The notes beneath the pieces were generated by a model. That model was not told the origin of the DNA and made no database searches. It worked only from the letters and a program-made list of their open reading frames with translations. DNA of 64,000 nucleotides. It comes from Reyranellaceae bacterium. GTDB taxonomy: Bacteria; Pseudomonadota; Alphaproteobacteria; Reyranellales; Reyranellaceae. Numbering within the stretch: the first letter of the stretch is position 1; every line of letters starts with the position of its first letter. A program made the translations under genes and the position numbers. Of this stretch, positions 23,101 through 54,007 are shown one piece after another. The DNA lies in contig JALHMM010000016.1 of NCBI GenBank assembly GCA_022844045.1, positions 19,806-83,805 on the forward strand, written 5' to 3'.

Positions 23101-24270
23101 ATGATCTACGCCGTACCCAAGCTCGGCCAGGCTGACCACGAGGTGCTGGCGCTCATCGCCGACCAGAAAGAACGCCTGCGCCTGTTCACCCAGAACAGTC
23201 CCAATCGCTGGATGGGCTCCTTGCGGCGCAGCACCTTCGCGCGCGCGATCGTTGGATCGAACAGCATCGAGGGCTATCACGCGACCGTCGGCGATGCGAT
23301 CGCGGTGGTGCAGCACGAGCAGACCATGGAGGCGTCGGACGAGACCGTGGCCGCCCTTCAGGGCTACCGCGACGCCATGACCTACATCATGCAGGCGGCC
23401 AGCGATCCGTATTTCGAGTTCTCGCAGCAGTTCCTGAAAAGCTTGCAGTTCATGATGATCCGTCACGACATGACGAAGAATCCCGGGCAATGGCGGCCTG
23501 GGGCGATCTTCATCGTCGAGCAGGCGACGGGAAAAACCGTCTATGACGGCCCCGAGGCGGAACAGATCAATGCGCTGATCGAGGAGCTCATCGCGTTCCT
23601 GAAGGCCGATAACGGCACGCCTGTCGCCGTCCGCGCGGCGATGGCCCACCTCAATCTGACGATGATCCACCCCTTCAAGGATGGAAACGGGCGGATGGCG
23701 CGGGCGCTACAGACCTTCGTGCTGGCGCGCGAAGGTGTCCTCCACCCCGTCTTCTCCAGCATCGAGGAGTGGCTCGGCAATCACACGCCGCAGTACTACC
23801 GAATCCTCGCTGAGACCGGCAAAGGGCGCTGGAACCCGGGCCGCGACGCGCTGCCGTGGGTGCGATTCTGCCTGACCGCGCATCATCAGCAGGCGGCGAC
23901 CTTGATCCGCCGCAACGATGAATACGCGCGGCTCTACGAGCTGGTCGTCGCCGCCGTCGAAAAGGCGGGCACGCACGAGCGTTGCACCATCTCCGTGTTC
24001 GACGCCGCGCTGGGATGGCCGATCACCAACCCGCGCTATCGCGCCGACGCGGAGGTCGGCGAGTACATGGCCACGCGGGATTTGAAGAGCCTGTGCGAGG
24101 CCGGCCTGTTCGAGCCCATCGGCGAGAAACGCGGACGCTTCTATCGCCGGACAGCCGTGCTGGAGAAGATCCGCAATGCTGTTCGCATCAAGCGCCCGCT
24201 GGAGAATCCCTACGACCTCGTGAAAACGCCGACGCGGTATCGTTTGCCCTCTGCCGAAGGGCGGCGTTGA
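23101..24270 (+). CDS. Fic family protein (AMPylase-type) with C-terminal winged-helix-like region
   Basis: Full ORF. HPFKDGNGRMAR matches the canonical HxFx(D/E)GNGRxxR Fic motif. Confidence 0.9.
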   Translation: MIYAVPKLGQADHEVLALIADQKERLRLFTQNSPNRWMGSLRRSTFARAIVGSNSIEGYHATVGDAIAVVQHEQTMEASDETVAALQGYRDAMTYIMQAASDPYFEFSQQFLKSLQFMMIRHDMTKNPGQWRPGAIFIVEQATGKTVYDGPEAEQINALIEELIAFLKADNGTPVAVRAAMAHLNLTMIHPFKDGNGRMARALQTFVLAREGVLHPVFSSIEEWLGNHTPQYYRILAETGKGRWNPGRDALPWVRFCLTAHHQQAATLIRRNDEYARLYELVVAAVEKAGTHERCTISVFDAALGWPITNPRYRADAEVGEYMATRDLKSLCEAGLFEPIGEKRGRFYRRTAVLEKIRNAVRIKRPLENPYDLVKTPTRYRLPSAEGRR

Positions 24271-24292
24271 CGCTGTGTCGCGCGCTGTGCGG

Positions 24293-25996
24293 CTACGCGC
24301 GTTGCCGCAGCAGCCTGCCCGATGGCCGCGTCGGTGGCGTGCCGGGTTCGGGCAGGGTCACGCCGTTGACGATCACCGCCTTGACGCCCAGCGGCCGGCT
24401 GATCAGGCGATCCTCGCCCGCCGGCAGATCGTGCACGCGTTCGAGCTTGCTGGCGCCGACCGTAACAGGATCGAACACCACGACGTCGGCCGGCAGGCCA
24501 AGCCCCAGCCGGCCGCGATCCGTCAGGCCGAAGATGTCGGCCGGCCGTTGCGTCAGTTGATGGATCGCCTGCTCGAGGCTGATCGCCCCGTCGTCGCGCA
24601 CCCAATGGCCGAGCAGGTGCGTGGCGTAGCAGGCGTCGCAGAGCTGGCTCATATGCGCGCCGCCGTCGCCCAGCGCGATCAGCACGTTGGGGTCCTGGAT
24701 GATCTCGCGCACCTCGGCTTCCTCGAAGTTCAGCACGTTGGCGCGCATCTTGATGCGCAGGTCCTGGCCGGCGAGGTCGAACATCAGGTCGACGGGATCG
24801 ACGCCGCGCTCAGCCGCGACATCGAACAGCCGGCGCTCGATCAGCCTCTGATCGCCGATCGAGGAGATCACGAGGTTGCGGAACATCGCCCGCCGCGAAT
24901 CGCCTTCGGCTTGCTTGCCCATGAAGAACGCGTCGTCGGGGCCGGGCCCCGCCAGCTGCGTCTTCACGCGCGCGCGGAACGCCGTGTCGGCATAGACCGC
25001 CTGGCGCGCCGCGTCGTCGGGCGCGGCGCGCAGGCGCTCGAACGAGGCGAAGGTGTCGAAGACCACGGGCGAACGGAAATCGAACTCGATCTGGATCGGC
25101 CGGCAGGCGCCCTGCGGGTAGATCGGCAGCCCGCGCCCGATCAGCTCGCGCGACTTGTCGAGCTGTGGCCGGTGCGAGTTGGGCCCGAGCGAGCCCGCCA
25201 GCAGCGCCGTCCAGATGATCGGCCGGCCGCTCTTGTAGTGGAGTTGCTCGTACTCGTCCCAGCGCGGACCACGACCGACATTGTAGTGGATGATGCCGTG
25301 ACCCGATCTGCCGACGGCGTCGGCGATCTCCAGCATCTCCTCGAACTCGGCGAGCCGGCTCGGCACCGGCCGGCCGGAATAGCCGACATGGACCTTCGAC
25401 ACCGACGTCGCGAAGCCGACGGCGCCCGCGTCCATCGCCTCGGCCACGATGGCTTTCATCGCGGCGATCTCGGCCGGCGTTGCGGCGCGCGTTGTCGACT
25501 CATCGCCCATCACCGACAGCCGCACCGGCGTGTGGCCGACCATCACCGCGACGTTGATGCCCAGCGGCCGGCGCTCGAGCGCGTCCATGTATTCGGGGAA
25601 GGTCTCGAACGGCCACGTCGCGCCGATGCCGGCCTCGAGCGCCGCCAGGCTCATGCCCTCGACCCGCTCCAGGGTGCGCAGGATCAGTCCGCGGTGCTCG
25701 GGCTTGGTGGGCGCGACGCCAAAGCCGCAATTGCCGACCACCACCGAGGTGACGCCGTGCCACGGCGAGATGGTGAGCATGGGGTCCCACAGCACCTGCG
25801 CGTCGTAATGCGTGTGGATGTCGACGAAGCCCGGCGCCACGACCATGCTCGAGGCATCGATGGTCTCGCGCGCCGCATCAGGCGCGGCGCCGAGCGCCAC
25901 GACCTTGCCGTCGGTGATGCCGACGTCGCCCTTGAAGCGGGGCTTGCCGCTACCGTCGACGATCTCGCCGCCGACGATCTTGATGTCGTACGCCAT
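24293..25996 (-). CDS. N-acyl-D-amino-acid deacylase (D-aminoacylase) family amidohydrolase
   Basis: Start at MAYDIKIVGGEIVDGSG. Carries PGFVDIHTHYD. Confidence 0.85.
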   Translation of the reverse strand: MAYDIKIVGGEIVDGSGKPRFKGDVGITDGKVVALGAAPDAARETIDASSMVVAPGFVDIHTHYDAQVLWDPMLTISPWHGVTSVVVGNCGFGVAPTKPEHRGLILRTLERVEGMSLAALEAGIGATWPFETFPEYMDALERRPLGINVAVMVGHTPVRLSVMGDESTTRAATPAEIAAMKAIVAEAMDAGAVGFATSVSKVHVGYSGRPVPSRLAEFEEMLEIADAVGRSGHGIIHYNVGRGPRWDEYEQLHYKSGRPIIWTALLAGSLGPNSHRPQLDKSRELIGRGLPIYPQGACRPIQIEFDFRSPVVFDTFASFERLRAAPDDAARQAVYADTAFRARVKTQLAGPGPDDAFFMGKQAEGDSRRAMFRNLVISSIGDQRLIERRLFDVAAERGVDPVDLMFDLAGQDLRIKMRANVLNFEEAEVREIIQDPNVLIALGDGGAHMSQLCDACYATHLLGHWVRDDGAISLEQAIHQLTQRPADIFGLTDRGRLGLGLPADVVVFDPVTVGASKLERVHDLPAGEDRLISRPLGVKAVIVNGVTLPEPGTPPTRPSGRLLRQRA

Positions 25997-26033
25997 AGGC
26001 CTAACCCCGACTATCGTTGAAGGGTGAAGGGTC

Positions 26034-26231
26034 TCTTCCTGGGACCGCCGGCGCCCTGCCAGCGTCTCGAAAAGGTTCACCACAGAGACACAGAGACACA
26101 GAGGAAAACGAAGAGAGGGCAAAACGCGCGCGAAGCGCGCAGTATTGATCTTCTCGTCTTTGTCTTCCTCTGTGCCTCTGTGCCTCTGTGGTTCGTCTTC
26201 TTCAAGATGCCGGTGGGACGCCGGCGCTCCC
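26034..26231. repeat. about 190-bp long-armed palindromic element (family 2)
   Basis: Same architecture as 20488..20673. Confidence 0.85.
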
Positions 26232-26248
26232 GAAGATCCCTCGCCGCC

Positions 26249-27217
26249 CTACTCCACCTTCACCCCGGTGTACTCGATCATCATCTTCCAGTAGGCGAGG
26301 TCGTCCTTCTGGATCTTGGCGAACGCCTCCGGCGTGCTGCCGATCGGATCGAAGCCCAGCGTCTTCCACTTCTCCAGCGAGTCCGGATCCTTCAGCGCCT
26401 TGTTGATGTCGGCCGACAGCTTGTCGACGATCGCCTTGGGCGTCTTGGCCGGCGCGAACATGCCGTACCAGCCGTCGACCACGAAATCAGGAAAGCCCGC
26501 CTCGACCATGGTCGGCAGATCGGGCGCCGAGGACGAGCGCGTGCGGCAGGTCTGCGCCAGCGCCTTGACGCGGCCGGCGCGCGCCTGCGGCAGGGCCGAC
26601 GGCAGATTGTCGAACATGTAGGTGACGCGGCCGGCCATCAGATCGGGCTGCGCCTGGGCGCTGCCGCGATAGGGCACCAGCCCGCCCTTGAACGCCGCGC
26701 GCCGCACCAGCAGCTCGGCCGCGATGTGCTGGCTCGATCCCGTCACCGCGGCGTAGGTCGCGGGCGCGTCCTGCTTCTTGATCCACTCCACCAGTTCCTT
26801 GGGCGTGGTGGCCGGGATCGAGTTGGGGATGACCAGCACCATGCACGCCGTGCCGAGCAAGGTCAGCGGCTCGAAGTCGGTGATCGGATCGTACGGCAGG
26901 TTGGGATAGAAGATCTTGTTGGAGCCGTTGGTGCTCTGCGTGCCGAGCTGGATGGTGTAGCCGTCGGGCGGCGACTTGGCGACGAAGTCGGTGCCGATCG
27001 CGCCCGCCGCCCCGCCCTTGTTCTCGATCACGATGCCCGCCTTCCACGTCTCGCCCAGCTTGGCCGCGAGGATGCGCGAGAGCGTGTCGGTCGGCCCGCC
27101 CGGCGGGAACGGCACGACCCAGCGGATCGGCCGGCTGGGATAGTCCTGCGCGACAGCGGGCACGGCGAGGACGAGGCCGGCGAGGACGGTGACGGCGGCG
27201 GCGAGAATTCTGCGCAT
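26249..27217 (-). CDS. Bug family (TctC-like) tripartite tricarboxylate transporter substrate-binding protein
   Basis: Full ORF. A signal peptide is followed by YPSRPIRWVVPFPPGGPTD. Confidence 0.9.
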   Translation of the reverse strand: MRRILAAAVTVLAGLVLAVPAVAQDYPSRPIRWVVPFPPGGPTDTLSRILAAKLGETWKAGIVIENKGGAAGAIGTDFVAKSPPDGYTIQLGTQSTNGSNKIFYPNLPYDPITDFEPLTLLGTACMVLVIPNSIPATTPKELVEWIKKQDAPATYAAVTGSSQHIAAELLVRRAAFKGGLVPYRGSAQAQPDLMAGRVTYMFDNLPSALPQARAGRVKALAQTCRTRSSSAPDLPTMVEAGFPDFVVDGWYGMFAPAKTPKAIVDKLSADINKALKDPDSLEKWKTLGFDPIGSTPEAFAKIQKDDLAYWKMMIEYTGVKVE

Positions 27218-27250
27218 GGGAGTTCCCCTATCGGTAAGGCTCGCATATGG

Positions 27251-27292
27251 CTCCCTCTCACCGCGTACGGCGAGAGGGTTGGGGTGAGAGAG
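27251..27292. repeat. short GC hairpin repeat (family 4)
   Basis: ctccctctcaccgcgtacggcgagagggttggggtgagagag. Confidence 0.55.
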
Positions 27293-27653
27293 GAGTCGCT
27301 GGTTGCGCAGGGCGGTTGTGCGCCACCTGCCTCAGCCCCTCGCCCCAGCCCTCTGCCCGCTCGCGCTGATTGATGCACATATCTTTGTGCGGCGGAACGA
27401 CTCAGCGAGGAAATTGGGACTTCCGAGATGACGGGGCGGCGTGATGCTGTTGAGGGCACCTCGGTTCGGACGAGGTGCGGTCGCGGAGCGGTATTCGCCG
27501 GGTCGGTTCGCGGATCGCGCGCAAGTCGTCCGCTACGGTCGTTATCACTGGGCCTCAAAACCCTCTCGACGCTCCATAGCCCTTGACCATCAACACACCA
27601 ACCGCGCCAAGGCCGCAGCCTGACTTGTTGGTCTTCATTTCGGAGTCAGGCCA

Positions 27654-48365: not shown

Positions 48366-50612
48366 TCAGGCCACTTCCGCCGTGTTCAGCAGCTTGTCGA
48401 TGGTGATCGGGAAGTCGCGCACGCGTTTGCCGGTGGCGTGGAAGATGGCGTTGGCCACCGCGGCGGCGGCGCCGACGATGCCGATCTCGCCCAGGCCCTT
48501 GACGCCGATCGGGCTCGTCTTCGCGTCGTGCTCGTCGACGAAGATCACCTCGATGTCGCCGACGTCGGCGTTCGCCGGCACGTGATAGTCGGCGAAGTTG
48601 TGATTGACGACGCGGCCCAGCCGGTGGTCGGTCACCGTCTCCTCGTGCAGCGCCATGCCGATGCCCATGGCGATGCCGCCGAGGATCTGGCTGCGCGCCG
48701 TCTTCGGATTGAGGATGCGGCCGGCGGCCGTCGCGCAGACCACACGCGTCACCCGCACCACGCCCAGCTCCTCATCGACACGCACCTCGGCGAAGACGGC
48801 GGATTGGGCGTAGCTGGCGTACTTCATCATCCGCAGCACCGGCGGCCAGGCCCTGCCCTTGCCCTCGATGCGCTCGACCTGCGCCGTCCGCATCGCCTCG
48901 CCGAGGCCGACGCCGCGCGCCGGCTCGCCGCGCCGCGCGATGCGGCCGCCATCGAAGACCACGTCGTCCAGCTTGGCGTCGGCCAGCGGCGAGCCGGTCA
49001 TGCGCCGGGCATGGCGCAACAGCGTCGCGCGGATGTCGTCGCAGGCTCTGGTCACCGCCGTGCCCGACGACGCGGCGGTCCACGAGCCGCCTTCGACCGG
49101 CGCCCACGGCAGGTCGGTATCGCCCAGCCGCACCGTCACCGCTTCCATCGGCAGCCCCAGGGCGTCGGCGGCGATCTGCGCGAGGATCGTGTAGGTGCCC
49201 GTGCCGATGTCGCTCGCGGCGGTCTCGACGAGAAGGCTCGCGTCGGCCTTCAGGATCACGCGCGCGTTGCTCAGCATCGTCATGGCGTCCCACGCGCCGC
49301 TCGCCATGCCCCAGCCGACCAGCTCGCCGCCCTCGCGCATCGAGCGCGGCGCGAGGCCGCGCCGCCGCCAGTCGAAGGCATCGGCGGCGGCGGCGTAGCA
49401 GGCCTCGAGCGACTTCGAGGTGAACGGCTTGTCGTCGTTGGCGTCGCGCTCGGCGTAGTTGCGCCGGCGGAATTCGAGCGGATCGATGCCGGCGGCGAAG
49501 GCGAGCTCGTCGATGGCGCATTCCAGCGCGTTGACGCCGCTCGCCGCGCCGGGCGCGCGCATGTCGCAGGGCGTGCAGGTGTCGAGCTTCGCCAGCCTGT
49601 AGTCCAGCCTGACACTGTCGCTGCGATAGAGAAGCCCCGACCAGTTGACCAGGTTCTCCTGGTAATCCTCGTGGCGCGAGGTCGCCGCGACGCCGTCATG
49701 CGTCACCGATCGCAGCCGGCCCTGGCTGTCGCAGGACAGGCCGATGGTGTGCAGGGTGTCGGGCCGGTAGCCCGTCGTGAACATCTCCCGCCGCGACAGG
49801 CAGACGCGCACCGAGCGCTTGAGCGCCAGGCTCGCCATCACGGCGCAGAAGGCGTTCGCCTGCGGGCGCAGCCCCACGCCGAAGGCGCCGCCGACATAGG
49901 CGCTGACCACGCGCACGTTCTTCTTCTTCAGGCCGAAGACCTTGGCGATGTAGCTGCGTACGTTCGTCGCGCCCTGCGTCTTGTCGTAGAGCGTCAGGCG
50001 GCCGTCGCCCTCCCAGACGCAGGTCGTGGCGAACATCTCCATCGGATTGTGATGCTGGGGCGGCAGCCCGTACCGCGCCCGCAGCTTGAACGGCTCGGCG
50101 GCGAACGCCTTGTCGACATCGCCGCGCGGCTTGGGCGGACGCGGCACGCCGAAGCGCTTGCGTGGCGGGCGATAGGCGTTGTCGACCTCCTGGTGGAGGT
50201 CGGTGCGGTGCGCGGCCTGCTCGTAGGTGACCTCGACCAGCGCGGCGGCGTCGCGCGCCGCCTCCCAGGTCTCGGCGACCACCAGCGCCACGGGCTGGTC
50301 GGCGAACTGGATCTCGTGGGACTGCAACGGCCTGAAGGGTGAACCGGGCGGCGCCACCATGTCGCGCCACCTGAAGTCGAACCGGGCGACATCGCCGCGA
50401 TCGGCGTGCGTGAAGACCCGCACCACGCCGGCGATCGCCAGCGCGGCGGCCGCGTCGATGCTCGCGATACGGCCGCGCGCGATGCGCGAAGGCACCAGGC
50501 ACCCATGCAGCAGATCGGGCGCATCGTACTCGGCGGCGTAGCGCGCCTGGCCGGTGACCTTGAGCCTGCCCTCGACGCGCGAGCGCGCCTGACCGACGTG
50601 GCGAGCCGTCAT
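48366..50612 (-). CDS. xanthine dehydrogenase/aldehyde oxidase family molybdopterin-binding subunit
   Basis: Full 748-aa ORF. Carries KVTGQARYAAEY and a C-terminal GLGEIGIVG motif. Confidence 0.9.
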   Translation of the reverse strand: MTARHVGQARSRVEGRLKVTGQARYAAEYDAPDLLHGCLVPSRIARGRIASIDAAAALAIAGVVRVFTHADRGDVARFDFRWRDMVAPPGSPFRPLQSHEIQFADQPVALVVAETWEAARDAAALVEVTYEQAAHRTDLHQEVDNAYRPPRKRFGVPRPPKPRGDVDKAFAAEPFKLRARYGLPPQHHNPMEMFATTCVWEGDGRLTLYDKTQGATNVRSYIAKVFGLKKKNVRVVSAYVGGAFGVGLRPQANAFCAVMASLALKRSVRVCLSRREMFTTGYRPDTLHTIGLSCDSQGRLRSVTHDGVAATSRHEDYQENLVNWSGLLYRSDSVRLDYRLAKLDTCTPCDMRAPGAASGVNALECAIDELAFAAGIDPLEFRRRNYAERDANDDKPFTSKSLEACYAAAADAFDWRRRGLAPRSMREGGELVGWGMASGAWDAMTMLSNARVILKADASLLVETAASDIGTGTYTILAQIAADALGLPMEAVTVRLGDTDLPWAPVEGGSWTAASSGTAVTRACDDIRATLLRHARRMTGSPLADAKLDDVVFDGGRIARRGEPARGVGLGEAMRTAQVERIEGKGRAWPPVLRMMKYASYAQSAVFAEVRVDEELGVVRVTRVVCATAAGRILNPKTARSQILGGIAMGIGMALHEETVTDHRLGRVVNHNFADYHVPANADVGDIEVIFVDEHDAKTSPIGVKGLGEIGIVGAAAAVANAIFHATGKRVRDFPITIDKLLNTAEVA

Positions 50613-50794
50613 CGCCGCCCTCCCCCGACCTCAGTGCTATCGCATAAGGATTGTTGGCTGCCTTGGGGCCGCGCCGCTCCAGTGGCGCGTCTTCTCGATC
50701 GGCCGTCGCGCCTCTGGAGTGGCGCGCCCCCAGCCTCGAACGTCATATGCGATCGCCCTGCCCCGGACCGCACGCCGCGGAACCTGCGACAGCC

Positions 50795-51811
50795 TCATGC
50801 GACGCGCTTGTCGGACTGCGACTGCGGCGTGCCGCGCGCCGCCTGGCTCAGCGCACGCGCCAAGGCGCGGCGCGCGAGGCCGATCTTGAAGTCGTTCTCG
50901 CCCTGCCCTCTGGCGCCGGCGAGGAAGCGATCGGCGAAGCCCTCGAAGGTCGGGCGGCTCGCGTCCTGCCCGATCAGCCACGCCTCGGCCGCGCGATCGC
51001 GCCATGGCCGGTGCGCGACACCGCCCATCGCCACCGCCGCGCCGGCGATCCGATCGCCATCGAGATCGAGCAGCACGGCGACCGAGACGAGCGCGAAGGC
51101 ATAGGACAGCCGGTCGCGCAGCTTGAGGTACGTGTGGTGCGGCCCGCCGGTACGCGCCGGCAGCTCGACATGCGTGATCAGCTCGCCATGCGCCAGCGTG
51201 TTGTCGAGATGCGGGGTATCCCCGGGCAGGCGATGGAAATCCTGGAACGGCATGAAACGCTTGCCCCGCGGTCCCTCGACATGGACGACCGCGTCGAGCG
51301 CGGCGAGCGCCACGCACATGTCGGAGGGATGGGTCGCGATGCAGCGCTCGCTGGCGCCGAGGATCGCGTGCATGCGATTGCGCCCGCCGATCGCGGGGCA
51401 GCCGGAGCCGGGCTCGCGCTTGTTGCACGGCGTGGCGCGGTCGTAGAAGTAGTGGCAGCGCGTGCGTTGCAGCAGGTTGCCGCCGGTGGTGGCGGCGTTA
51501 CGCAGCTGCGCCGAGGCGCCGGCGAGGATGGCGCTCGACAGCAGCGGATAGCGCCGCTCGACGCGCGCATCCCAGGCGAGGTCGCTGTTGGGCACCAGCG
51601 CGCCGATGCGCAGGCCGCCGCCATCGACGTCCTCGATCGCCGACAGCGGCAGCCGGTTGATGTCGACCACACGCGAGGGCCGCGCGACCTCGACCTTCAT
51701 CAGGTCGACCAGATTGGTTCCGCCGGCCAGCGCGCAGGCGTCGGGCACCGCGACGATCGCGGCGACCGCTTCGGCCACCGAGCTGGCGCGGATGTATTCG
51801 AAGCGCCTCAT
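50795..51811 (-). CDS. xanthine dehydrogenase family FAD-binding subunit
   Basis: Start at MRRFEYIRASSVAEA. Carries AGGTNLVDLMK. The start overlaps the stop of the 2Fe-2S subunit gene. Confidence 0.9.
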   Translation of the reverse strand: MRRFEYIRASSVAEAVAAIVAVPDACALAGGTNLVDLMKVEVARPSRVVDINRLPLSAIEDVDGGGLRIGALVPNSDLAWDARVERRYPLLSSAILAGASAQLRNAATTGGNLLQRTRCHYFYDRATPCNKREPGSGCPAIGGRNRMHAILGASERCIATHPSDMCVALAALDAVVHVEGPRGKRFMPFQDFHRLPGDTPHLDNTLAHGELITHVELPARTGGPHHTYLKLRDRLSYAFALVSVAVLLDLDGDRIAGAAVAMGGVAHRPWRDRAAEAWLIGQDASRPTFEGFADRFLAGARGQGENDFKIGLARRALARALSQAARGTPQSQSDKRVA

Positions 51812-52311
51812 TCGGCGGCCGCCTGTGCCTGGGCCTGATCTTGGGCCCGGTCCTGGCCAAGCACGTCCTCGATGGCGGCGACGATGTTGGGGTAGGCGCC
51901 GCAGCGGCAGAGATTGCCGCTCATGTTCTCGCGGATGTCGTCGCGCGTACGCGTCCTGCCCTCGGCGAGCAGGCCGACGGCCGAGCAGATCTGGCCGGGC
52001 GTGCAATAGCCGCACTGGAAAGCGTCGCGCTCGATGAAGGCCTGCTGCAGCGGATGCAGGGCGCCGGCTTGCGTCAGGCCCTCCACGGTCGTCACCTCGG
52101 CGCCATCGAGCGTGACGGCGAGCAGCAGGCAGGCGTTCTTCCGCCGGCCGTCGACCAGCACCGTGCAGGCGCCGCACTGGCCGTGATCGCAGCCCTTCTT
52201 CGAGCCGCGCAGATCCATGCGCTCGCGCAACAGATCGAGCAGGGTGACCCACGGCTCACAGACGATCTCGCGCCGCGCGCCGTTCAGGATCAAGACGACG
52301 GCGACGAGCAT
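51808..52311 (-). CDS. (2Fe-2S)-binding small subunit of the molybdo-hydroxylase
   Basis: Start at MLVAVVLILNG. Carries CDHGQCGACTV and QCGYCTPG...CRCGAY cluster motifs. Confidence 0.9.
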   Translation of the reverse strand: MLVAVVLILNGARREIVCEPWVTLLDLLRERMDLRGSKKGCDHGQCGACTVLVDGRRKNACLLLAVTLDGAEVTTVEGLTQAGALHPLQQAFIERDAFQCGYCTPGQICSAVGLLAEGRTRTRDDIRENMSGNLCRCGAYPNIVAAIEDVLGQDRAQDQAQAQAAAE

Positions 52312-52408
52312 GACGGCGTTCCCGGGATCGACTCCAATAGGGCTCAACGTGCCTCGGCGCGCGAGGTTGCCGCAAGGCTTCCCGCGCGACAACGCCGCGC
52401 GCCCGCCG

Positions 52409-53503
52409 TCAGGCCCTCATGTCGATCGGCAGGTGATACGGCTCGTCGCCCAGCGCATCGACGCGGGCCCAGAAGTCGGGGCCGGACGCCGTGCCGCTTG
52501 GCGCCTTTGTCGCGGACTGGCGGAAGATGTTCCAGGAGCGTGGATGCAGGCGGTTGGCCTCGTCGTAGTGGCGCCGCGCCTCGTCCTCCCGGCCCTTCAG
52601 CTTCAGGTGCTGTGCCAGCTTGAAGTGCACATGGGCCCGCGCGGCGTCACCGTCGGGCAGGCGCAGATGGGCGCGCGCCGCGCTCTCGTCGAAGGCGTGA
52701 ACGCTCGACGCGCCGTTGAGCACCCAGTCGCGGATCGCCTGGACATAGCCGTTCTTGATGCGCGCGCGCTCTGCCGTCTGCTCGGGCGTCATCTCGCCGG
52801 TGGCGCGGTTCATCCGGCGGAAGGCGTCGGACTGGCCGGCATTCTCCGCCGGCCGCACGATGCGGCCCCGCTCGTCGATCCACACCGCCTGCGGCACGTT
52901 GACCATGTGATAAAGCTCGGCGACGCGATGCTCGCGGTCGACCACGCAGGGATACTCGGGCGAGGCCTGCTCGATCCACGGCCGCGCCGCCTCGGGCTCG
53001 TCCAGGGCGACGGCCAGCACGACGAAGTCGCGGTCACGAAGCTCGGCGTAGAGTTGCTGCCACACGGGCAAGTCAGCGCGGCAGCCTCACCACGAGGCCC
53101 AACTCACCAGCAGCACCTTCTTGCCGCGATGCGCCGCGAGCGTGTGCGACGTGCCGGCGAGATCGGGCAGCGCGAAGTCCGGCGCCGCCAGCGAGCGCAG
53201 TCGCTCGGCACGCTCGGCCGCGCTGGTGCCCAGCACCCAGGTCTCGCGCGCTTCATCGTGCGCCAGCGGCATGTCGAGATGGCGCCACAGGGCCGCCACG
53301 TTGATCTCGCCCTGCGCGCCGACGAGGGATGGCGCGCGCCCCGGCGGCACCGGCACGCAGATCTCGCCCTTGCAGAAGCCCTCCGGCTTCACCGTCCAGC
53401 CGGTGGCGCGCGCGGCGTCATCCGACGACAGCCACAAGCCATCGTCCGCCGTGCGCGCCTTGGCGATCTCGACGGTGGTCTCATCGGTCATGACAGTGAT
53501 CAT
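52409..53503 (-). CDS. TlpA/ResA-type thioredoxin-fold protein with in-frame TGA (53089-53087) at the first active-site position: candidate selenoprotein, alternatively a nonsense pseudogene
   Basis: Track ORFs 53087..53503 and 52409..53071 share one frame. The read-through is APDFALPDLAGTSHTLAAHRGKKVLLVSWASW-TGA-GCRADLPVWQQLYAEL...VNVPQAVWIDERGRIVRP, a redoxin pattern with the stop where WC(xx)C normally has its first Cys. Confidence 0.6.
53056..53085 (-). other. hairpin immediately 3' of the in-frame UGA (possible bacterial SECIS)
   Basis: On the RNA, GCUGCCGCGC pairs with GUGUGGCAGC: 6 Watson-Crick pairs plus 4 more including 2 G-U pairs. The loop is UGACUUGCCC, and the stem starts 1 nt after the UGA. 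Confidence 0.4.
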
Positions 53504-53653
53504 GGTCGGTCTCTCGGCGGCTGGTGAAGGCTGGTCCCGGGCGGCATCTTAGCCTGCCCATCCGGCGGGGGAAGCGCGGCGCGCTCCTCTTTCGGCGAGC
53601 CCACGCGAGTTGACGCCTGGGGAACTCCGCGAGCACGCGGGCTTTACCCTGGC

Positions 53654-53944
53654 ATGGCTTGGCGCGCACAACTGCTATCGATCGGCCTGACGATCGCAAC
53701 GTCGATGGCGTCCGTGCTGGCCGCCACATCGGGCGACATGCTGGTGGCTTCCGAGGTCGTCCGCGGCGAGAGCGCGCTGACCGTCGTGCGCTGCACCTAT
53801 GTCAGGGGACTGCGAAGCGAGACGCTGCATTTCGTGGTGACCCCGGAGGGCTCGAGCCATTGCGCATGGTCCCGACGTCGCGCCGCCGAGCAAAGCCCAT
53901 CGGCCGGCCATCATCCTCGGGGCCACACGCGGCCCCGAGGGTGA
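53654..53944 (+). CDS. hypothetical small protein with signal-like N-terminus
   Basis: MAWRAQLLSIGLTIATSMASVLAA. No recognisable motif and weak support. Confidence 0.3.
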   Translation: MAWRAQLLSIGLTIATSMASVLAATSGDMLVASEVVRGESALTVVRCTYVRGLRSETLHFVVTPEGSSHCAWSRRRAAEQSPSAGHHPRGHTRPRG

Positions 53945-54007
53945 CAGGTCGATCCGCATAGCCAGCCGCCCGCCGCGATGGTGCGCGGCGGGCGACGGCG
54001 TATGTCC

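Follow-up and report, generated by a model that had tools for sequence, protein, structure and literature searches.

The DNA analysed here, referred to as the window, is a stretch of 64,000 nucleotides from the genome of a Reyranellaceae bacterium (contig JALHMM010000016.1 of assembly GCA_022844045.1, positions 19,806 to 83,805 of the forward strand). On its minus strand lies a gene for a thioredoxin-fold protein whose active-site motif contains an in-frame TGA, interpreted here as a selenocysteine (Sec, U) codon. The list of open reading frames (ORFs) presents this gene as two pieces in the same minus-strand frame, 53087..53503 (138 aa, ATG start) and 52409..53071 (220 aa, TTG start). A first-pass annotation, made from the letters alone, had stated that only the TGA at 53089-53087 separates the two pieces. 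Translation of 53503-52409 with TGA read as U confirmed this. The frame 53503-52412 contains no other internal stop and encodes 364 residues, in which the TGA stands in the context ...KKVLLVSWASW-U-GCRADLPVWQQLY... The features of the gene are collected in Table 1.

Table 1. Position and basis of the features assigned to the proposed selenoprotein gene (coordinates of the window).
Feature	Position	Strand	Basis
Complete proposed selenoprotein gene	52409..53503	minus	364 codons plus terminal TGA (52411-52409); ATG start at 53503
In-frame TGA read as selenocysteine, U139	53087..53089	minus	Homologous codon is TGA in relatives
Active-site motif W-A-S-W-U-G-C, residues 135-141	53081..53101	minus	Invariant columns and structure model
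N-terminal domain, residues 1-100	53204..53503	minus	Beta-rich; invariant C44 and C49 (CxxxxC)
Thioredoxin-fold (ResA/TlpA-like redoxin) domain, residues 105-220	52844..53191	minus	Pfam and Foldseek
C-terminal helical domain with one TPR-like repeat, residues ~227-350	52454..52825	minus	Model helices and profile matches
Conserved candidate selenocysteine insertion sequence (SECIS)	53057..53071	minus	5-bp stem UUGCC/GGCAG, loop CGUGU; RNAalifold consensus and covariation
Long 10-bp hairpin GCUGCCGCGC ... GUGUGGCAGC	53056..53085	minus	Stable locally; mutually exclusive with the small hairpin

The read-through product falls in an existing curated family. With U replaced by C, it matches NCBIfam NF041054 (WAxxUGC_long, 'ResA-like WAxxUGC motif-containing protein') with 304.1 bits (E 1.5e-90). 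NF041054 is an equivalog model with a curated cut-off of 300 bits, which the protein passes by a narrow margin; the score is 297.5 bits when a six-frame search reads the stop. The match is near full-length (model positions 9-322 of 354), with the C-terminal 30 residues of the window protein falling beyond it, and the protein aligns over its full length with 20 family members. It shares with the family the WAxxUGC motif with TGA at U, the three-part architecture, a length of about 355-365 aa, the Pfam AhpC-TSA/Redoxin core and the existence of Cys (CGC) homologues. As modelled, the window protein has the 'long' architecture, composed of an N-terminal domain, a redoxin domain and a C-terminal helical extension. 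The first-pass annotation had called the U-G-C spacing odd. Because NF041054 is defined by the WAxxUGC motif, this spacing is not damage but the signature of the family, and the Cys forms likewise read C-G-C.

The family is also present in the selenoproteome literature, as the 'Prx-like (UGC-containing)' family of Zhang & Gladyshev 2008 (pfam00578, motif UGC), for which the Global Ocean Sampling analysis lists 46 Sec sequences and 855 Cys homologues (PMC2398784). Literature searches by motif or accession name returned no paper, and the family was traced through a 2026 review and the Global Ocean Sampling paper (PMC2398784). The main text of Peng et al. 2016 contains no mention of the WAxxUGC family (PMC5029168). 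The gene is therefore not novel and adds little beyond existing knowledge of the family. The by-products of the analysis are a likely SECIS definition that holds family-wide, two diverged copies in one genome, and an N-terminal CxxxxC domain without a known fold. Members of the WAxxUGC family occur very widely among the Proteobacteria of soil and fresh water and among Rokubacteria.

The TGA is conserved at the same codon across distant relatives. NF041054 was searched in the genome that carries the window and in 40 relatives. Within the same taxonomic family, each of the 24 genomes contains a match (275-317 bits) that is interrupted by exactly one TGA, and the relatives outside this taxonomic family contain weak redoxin matches only, without stops. 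In each of the 21 same-family loci that were extracted, the TGA occupies the same codon (WASW*GCR, 21/21). A scan of one genome per prokaryotic species yielded, as its best 80 loci, members from Alpha-, Beta- and Gammaproteobacteria, Rokubacteria/Methylomirabilota, Binatia, SAR324 and others; the codon is TGA in 78 of these and TGC in two (L072 and L080). Combined, these sets comprise 101 related loci, which span several phyla. TGA occupies the codon in 99 of them, each with the motif WASW-TGA-GC unchanged, and TGC in the remaining two; the position of the TGA is therefore far beyond chance. Uninterrupted database homologues of about 360-375 aa read W[AS]SWCGC in 78 of 79 cases, so the Cys form has the same one-residue spacing. 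W-A-x-x-U-G-C thus recurs among the orthologues, and the Cys orthologues, for which the first-pass annotation had named a normal CxxC spacing as evidence against a selenoprotein, read C-G-C instead.

Selection acts equally on both sides of the TGA. The closest relatives found for the window gene are three Joint Genome Institute (JGI) metagenome contigs (L128-L130), which encode a protein 96% identical over its C-terminal half and share the ATG, internal TGA and stop of the window gene (nucleotide identity 93.2%). In a Nei-Gojobori comparison with this 93%-identical relative, in which the synonymous divergence (dS) is 0.23-0.26, the ratio of nonsynonymous to synonymous divergence (dN/dS) is 0.104 over the 138 codons before the TGA and 0.103 over the 225 codons after it. 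This equal purifying selection rules out a recent nonsense mutation. Among 72 aligned homologues, W135, S137, W138, C/U139, G140, C141, R142, N202, V203, P204, C44 and C49 are invariant, and the window protein keeps every such residue.

These results bear on the alternative raised in the first-pass annotation, in which a TGC or TGT codon of a CGC-type redoxin became TGA in a decaying gene that yields only a 138-residue fragment. Forms with a TGC Cys codon do exist (L072, L080 and 78 protein clusters), and a single-base change in them could yield TGA; moreover, the Sec-pathway genes selA and selD were not found in the assembly. However, decay is contradicted by the TGA shared by 99 loci of several phyla, by a dN/dS of 0.10 that is the same downstream as upstream, by the intactness of all family-invariant residues past the TGA, and by synonymous sites past the TGA that are frozen (see below), a state that a dead gene would not retain. 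Decay of the gene thus retains almost no probability.

The TGA falls at the position of a catalytic residue. An AlphaFold2 model built with 72 homologues has a mean predicted local distance difference test score (pLDDT) of 95.5 and a predicted template-modelling score of 0.92, and consists of three parts. The central part carries Pfam AhpC-TSA (73.3 bits) and Redoxin (50.3 bits) matches over residues 106-216, and residues 105-220 superimpose on Bacillus subtilis ResA (2f9s) with a root-mean-square deviation of 1.4 A over 113 columns in Foldseek. In a profile alignment to 3kcm, a solved thioredoxin-family protein from Geobacter, WCG-CR lies over WCPPCR with one residue deleted, which places Sec139 at the first (nucleophilic) Cys and Cys141 at the second. 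The invariant Pro204 aligns with the Pro of the 3kcm segment 'gvPetfvid'. In the model, U139 lies between strand 129-135 and helix 140-158. The earlier placement of the TGA at the first redox Cys therefore stands, as U139 is matched to the first CxxC cysteine of solved ResA/thioredoxin-family structures.

The same structural context is relevant to another alternative, in which two separate polypeptides arise by termination at the TGA and re-initiation at TTG 53071, or the TGA is read through by a near-cognate tRNA with insertion of Trp or Cys. Public gene callers do annotate ORFs of 138 aa and 218-220 aa, and a TTG, GTG or ATG codon occurs six codons past the TGA in many family members. Such a split, however, would break up the thioredoxin fold, with strand beta1 on one chain and the active-site helix on the other, the Cys forms are single chains, and the putative restart codon is a Leu codon within the conserved hairpin described below. 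The genome also has a dedicated tRNA-Sec and SelB. Two polypeptides or non-Sec decoding are, accordingly, highly improbable.

The genome encodes components dedicated to Sec insertion. It is a metagenome-assembled genome (MAG) whose 144 contigs total 6.4 Mb, with a completeness of 91.9% and a contamination of 5.8%. ARAGORN identified one tRNA-SeC with anticodon TCA (C85:23171-23266), and the same contig carries selB (C85:26680-28563; 466 bits vs a cut-off of 242), whose product is 95% identical to SelB of the same genus. The gene for the formate dehydrogenase alpha subunit, fdhA (C23:18930-21974; TIGR01553, 1482 bits), contains one in-frame TGA. Formate dehydrogenase is the commonest bacterial selenoprotein, and fdhA with its TGA constitutes a second selenoprotein class in this genome. 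The possibility that the window contig (C16) is a contaminant, with the Sec genes on C85 belonging to another organism, was considered and rejected, because C16 has core composition (rank 8 of 144 by tetranucleotide distance), a KaiC-like neighbouring gene on C16 has counterparts in two same-genus genomes at 79-81% identity, and the SelB on C85 is same-genus-like.

Two hairpins downstream of the UGA compete for the role of SECIS element. The first-pass annotation had proposed a 10-bp stem with a 10-nt loop. This structure exists: the stem GCUGCCGCGC/GUGUGGCAGC starts one base past the UGA and is the minimum-free-energy (MFE) fold, with -18.4 kcal/mol for the stem, -26 kcal/mol for its 66-nt context and pair probabilities >0.99. 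Its z-score against dinucleotide shuffles (-0.92) is unremarkable because the DNA is 67% G+C. The proposal that it acts as the SECIS is not supported, as the stem is not conserved and lacks covariation.

A smaller hairpin is conserved instead. The 48 nt from the UGA onward were aligned for the 99 Sec-form loci, with the U of UGA as column 1. RNAalifold returned a single consensus helix for these loci, pairing columns 19-23 with 29-33 around a CGUGU loop; in the window gene, the stem begins 15 nt and the loop 20 nt after the UGA. Synonymous sites are nearly frozen from +15 to +32, whereas four-fold sites elsewhere in the gene vary freely. For example, the Leu codon is CUG or UUG only, the Pro/Ser codon is CCC/UCC in 93 of 99 sequences, Val is GUG in 93 of 99, and Gln is CAG in 94 of 98. 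When counted with six pairs, the small hairpin is paired in 93.1% of cells and shows 15 double-sided changes vs 4.4 expected, and none of 500 shuffles reaches the observed pairing or covariation score. Pair 18/34 occurs as CG 35, UA 11 and UG 7 times, and pair 19/33 as CG 49, UG 37 and UA 4 times. In the outer pair, all 18 sequences with U at column 18 have A or G at column 34, and the four sequences with CAA for CAG all carry UUG, not CUG. The shuffle test overstates the significance of these values because the sequences are related; slid-partner controls, which keep this relatedness, are 25-66% paired vs the 93% observed.

The dimensions of the small hairpin agree with the bacterial SECIS (bSECIS) model, which specifies a loop of 3-9 nt, an upper stem of 4-16 bp, a UGA-to-loop distance of 16-37 nt, and a G at the first or second loop position with G or U after it (PMC13188914), with an MFE <= -7.5 kcal/mol. 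The hairpin has a 5-nt loop (C-G-U-G-U) and a stem of 5-6 bp at 20 nt from the UGA. Its energy lies only marginally within the limit, at -8.3 kcal/mol for the best structure containing it and -4.7 kcal/mol for the hairpin alone. By comparison, the loop of the long hairpin (10 nt) and its distance from the UGA (11 nt) fall outside the limits of 3-9 nt and 16-37 nt. Across 90 distinct sequences, the long hairpin is paired in 76.7% of cells, with pairs 5/34, 6/33, 12/27 and 13/26 failing in 35-55 of the 90, and its covariation is not above that of shuffles, 490 of 500 of which reach its score.

A selenoprotein whose functional SECIS is the long hairpin is an unlikely arrangement on these grounds, even though this hairpin is the dominant fold of the isolated RNA and its UGYC/GGCA core is present in all members. 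General knowledge of the ribosome footprint also speaks against it: with UGA in the A site, the immediately downstream mRNA sits inside the ribosome channel, and the 5' arm of the long hairpin would lie there. The comparative pattern thus favours the CGUGU-loop hairpin, rather than the long hairpin, as the conserved SECIS candidate. The long stem may be a clade-specific addition.

The ribosome may also determine which of the two structures forms. With the ribosome at the UGA, the first ~12-15 nt downstream would occupy the mRNA channel, and the 5' arm of the long hairpin would be unable to pair. The freed GGCAG could then pair with UUGCC to form the 5-bp hairpin with its CGUGU loop, 15 nt past the UGA, and binding of SelB-GTP-Sec-tRNA(Sec) to this small hairpin would lead to insertion of selenocysteine. 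The candidate resembles the Escherichia coli fdhF SECIS and the bSECIS model in being a small apical hairpin in the coding region, with a G-U in the loop about 20 nt past the UGA, where the loop of the fdhF SECIS is also positioned. It differs from the fdhF element in a stem of 5-6 bp only, in the absence of an identified conserved bulged U, in a spacer of 14-15 nt vs 11 nt, and in matching no Rfam model.

The two domains that flank the redoxin domain are less readily assigned. The N-terminal domain carries the motif KPEG-x-C-x4-C-VP around Cys44 and Cys49. Residues 1-100 modelled alone reach a pLDDT of 91.3, and searches with them gave no Pfam match at E<=10 and no Protein Data Bank (PDB) fold match at E<=0.001. 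In the C-terminal domain, the model places helices at 240-266, 285-302, 306-319 and 342-350. TPR_2 and TPR_14 matches stay below their cut-offs, with a weak TPR at residues 290-322, and a profile of the protein matches consensus TPR proteins at positions 287-326. A cytoplasmic location is expected for the protein, because its sequence contains no signal peptide or membrane segment (maximum 19-residue Kyte-Doolittle mean 0.96; N-terminus 0.22).

Comparison with known redox systems helps to delimit the likely chemistry of the protein. ResA, TlpA and CcmG (DsbE) have the same thioredoxin-fold subtype, WxxW-Cys context and invariant Pro as the window protein. However, their active site is CxxC rather than the one-residue-shorter U-G-C, they are membrane-anchored or exported, whereas the window protein has neither a signal peptide nor a transmembrane segment, and they lack both the N-terminal CxxxxC domain and the TPR-like tail. 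The window protein scores far below the curated cut-offs for ResA (72.6 vs 170), TlpA (50.7 vs 230) and DsbE (23.6 vs 123). It also differs from peroxiredoxins (AhpC/TSA, PrxQ/BCP), as PxxxTxxC is absent, with Ala136 at -3 and Leu132 at -7 of U139. The PrxQ and BCP profiles give 23-25 bits vs cut-offs of 140-260, and only the generic Pfam domain passes. A mechanistic parallel is offered by CXC redox proteins, namely B. subtilis YphP (thioredoxin-like, with a CxC site), the thioredoxin CGC mutant and the CGC tripeptide, in which the two redox residues are likewise one Gly apart, in or near a thioredoxin-like site. Here the first of these residues is selenocysteine, and the likeness is one of mechanism, not of membership in the YphP/DUF1094 family. 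CXC centres are reported to be more oxidising than thioredoxin, with potentials of -167 mV for the CGC tripeptide, -200 mV for the thioredoxin CGC mutant and -130 mV for YphP (PMC3173608).

The protein is probably a cytoplasmic selenol/thiol oxidoreductase. In a thioredoxin fold of the ResA-like type, Sec139 would stand where helix alpha1 begins, in place of the first Cys, which is the nucleophile. Cys141, only one residue away, would be its resolving partner, so that the centre is of the CXC type and shorter than CxxC by one residue. The two residues would form a strained selenenylsulfide. By analogy, because CXC centres are more oxidising than thioredoxin, the protein may act in disulfide exchange, isomerisation or de-thiolation rather than as a strong reductase. 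The two flanking domains, N-terminal CxxxxC and C-terminal TPR-like, would probably hold a partner or relay to it. A more specific possibility, to be entertained only tentatively, is that the protein is a self-contained cytoplasmic redox relay. In this arrangement, the N-terminal CxxxxC domain, of apparently novel fold, would exchange electrons with, or deliver substrate or metal to, the U-G-C selenenylsulfide, and the TPR-like tail would recruit the client. If so, the activity would be distinct from those of ResA/TlpA and peroxiredoxins, and the two paralogues described below would represent two client specificities.

Several observations weigh against interpreting the locus as a functional selenoprotein gene. 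First, selA and selD were not found in the 92%-complete MAG, in which tblastn with the selA and selD proteins of the same genus also revealed no fragments, and a full Sec pathway is thus not demonstrated for this genome. Second, the literature describes the family only as 'predicted with high confidence', and Se incorporation is without experimental evidence for any member. Third, within the window sequence the long hairpin is far stabler than the small one (-18.4 vs -4.7 kcal/mol), so that formation of the small hairpin would need the ribosome to unwind the 5' arm of the long one. An Rfam scan of 52800-53300 at E<=10 gave no SECIS family, its sole match being a chance hit to a Pyrobaculum sRNA. 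Finally, no conserved neighbourhood points to a substrate, as clustering of flanking ORFs, the gene's own shadows excepted, identified no neighbour present in more than 9 of the 101 loci.

The first of these points is addressed in part by gene order. A genome of the same genus has [gene X]-selD followed by divergent selA-selB, with selD, selA and selB contiguous. In the MAG, contig C85 ends 130 nt upstream of selB, within the selA-selB spacer, and contig C31 starts at residue 100 of gene X (the gene following selD, 86% identity). Because these two contig ends bracket selD-selA by same-genus synteny, selA and selD probably fall in one unassembled stretch of ~4-5 kb between C31 and C85. Of the Sec genes for which the first-pass annotation had recommended a search, tRNA-Sec (selC) and selB are present, and selA and selD are absent from an incomplete assembly. 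A lack of Sec machinery, which that annotation had named as grounds for refuting a selenoprotein, is thereby answered only in part.

When these points are set against the family match, the conservation of the TGA, the Cys counterparts, the pattern of selection, and the presence of tRNA-Sec, SelB and fdhA, the earlier view of the gene as a candidate selenoprotein gains support. It is almost certain that the in-frame TGA in the gene for this thioredoxin-fold protein genuinely encodes selenocysteine. The locus as a whole is very probably an intact gene whose product, of 364 residues, is a cytoplasmic selenoprotein of the 'UGC-containing Prx-like / TlpA-like redoxin' family (NF041054), with decoding and chemistry as proposed above. 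From the observed gene integrity, family membership, TGA conservation, Sec/Cys pairs, covarying hairpin, fold, tRNA-Sec and SelB, we infer actual Sec insertion, redox chemistry and substrate as parts of the best explanation.

This reading has a direct consequence for annotation, as ORFs 53503-53087 and 53071-52409 belong merged as one selenoprotein gene. Public calls for Sec forms are C-terminal fragments of ~220 aa that start at V/M-W-Q just past the motif. The split into ORFs of 138 aa and 218-222 aa is found in public gene calls for JGI contigs L128-L130 and in many database clusters, where the pieces bear labels such as 'hypothetical protein', 'AhpC/TSA family' or 'TPR repeat protein'. The codon wrongly taken as the start of the second piece (TTG, GTG or ATG) sits in or beside the candidate SECIS hairpin.

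The genome contains a second WAxxUGC gene with one TGA (C14:15215-16207), 52.6% identical to the window copy. The C14 gene is the orthologue of the copy present in all 24 same-family genomes, and the window copy is 49-55% identical to this shared copy; its nearest named relatives, at 71-73%, are in Reyranella MAGs. The window gene is thus a diverged second paralogue in which the TGA, the motif, the small hairpin and every invariant residue are retained. A match on contig C118 with two TGAs was examined as a third selenoprotein and rejected, since it is an ordinary thioredoxin (WAEWCGPC) with the stops upstream of the gene.

The selenoprotein gene is followed immediately, on its own strand, by a three-gene operon of the xanthine-dehydrogenase/aldehyde-oxidase type (48366-52392, minus), encoding 2Fe-2S, FAD and molybdopterin subunits. 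The 93%-identical relative carries CitMHS_2 and 2OG-Fe(II) oxygenase genes in its place, and a rearrangement breakpoint therefore lies just after 52409. A functional link to the operon was rejected because of these different genes. A 2Fe-2S subunit gene occurs nearby in only a few distant loci, at other positions. A promoter and terminator scan of 52200-54000 found nothing.

Two further observations concern the Sec loci. On C85 (locus 23171-28723), a 190-aa ORF (26047-26616) and a long ORF of ~900 aa lie between tRNA-Sec and selB. In the same-genus genomes G002, G005 and G006 (e.g., L036), the selD match of ~300 codons lies inside an open frame of 744-799 codons. This long frame may encode a fusion protein, or it may be merely a long open frame in G+C-rich DNA.

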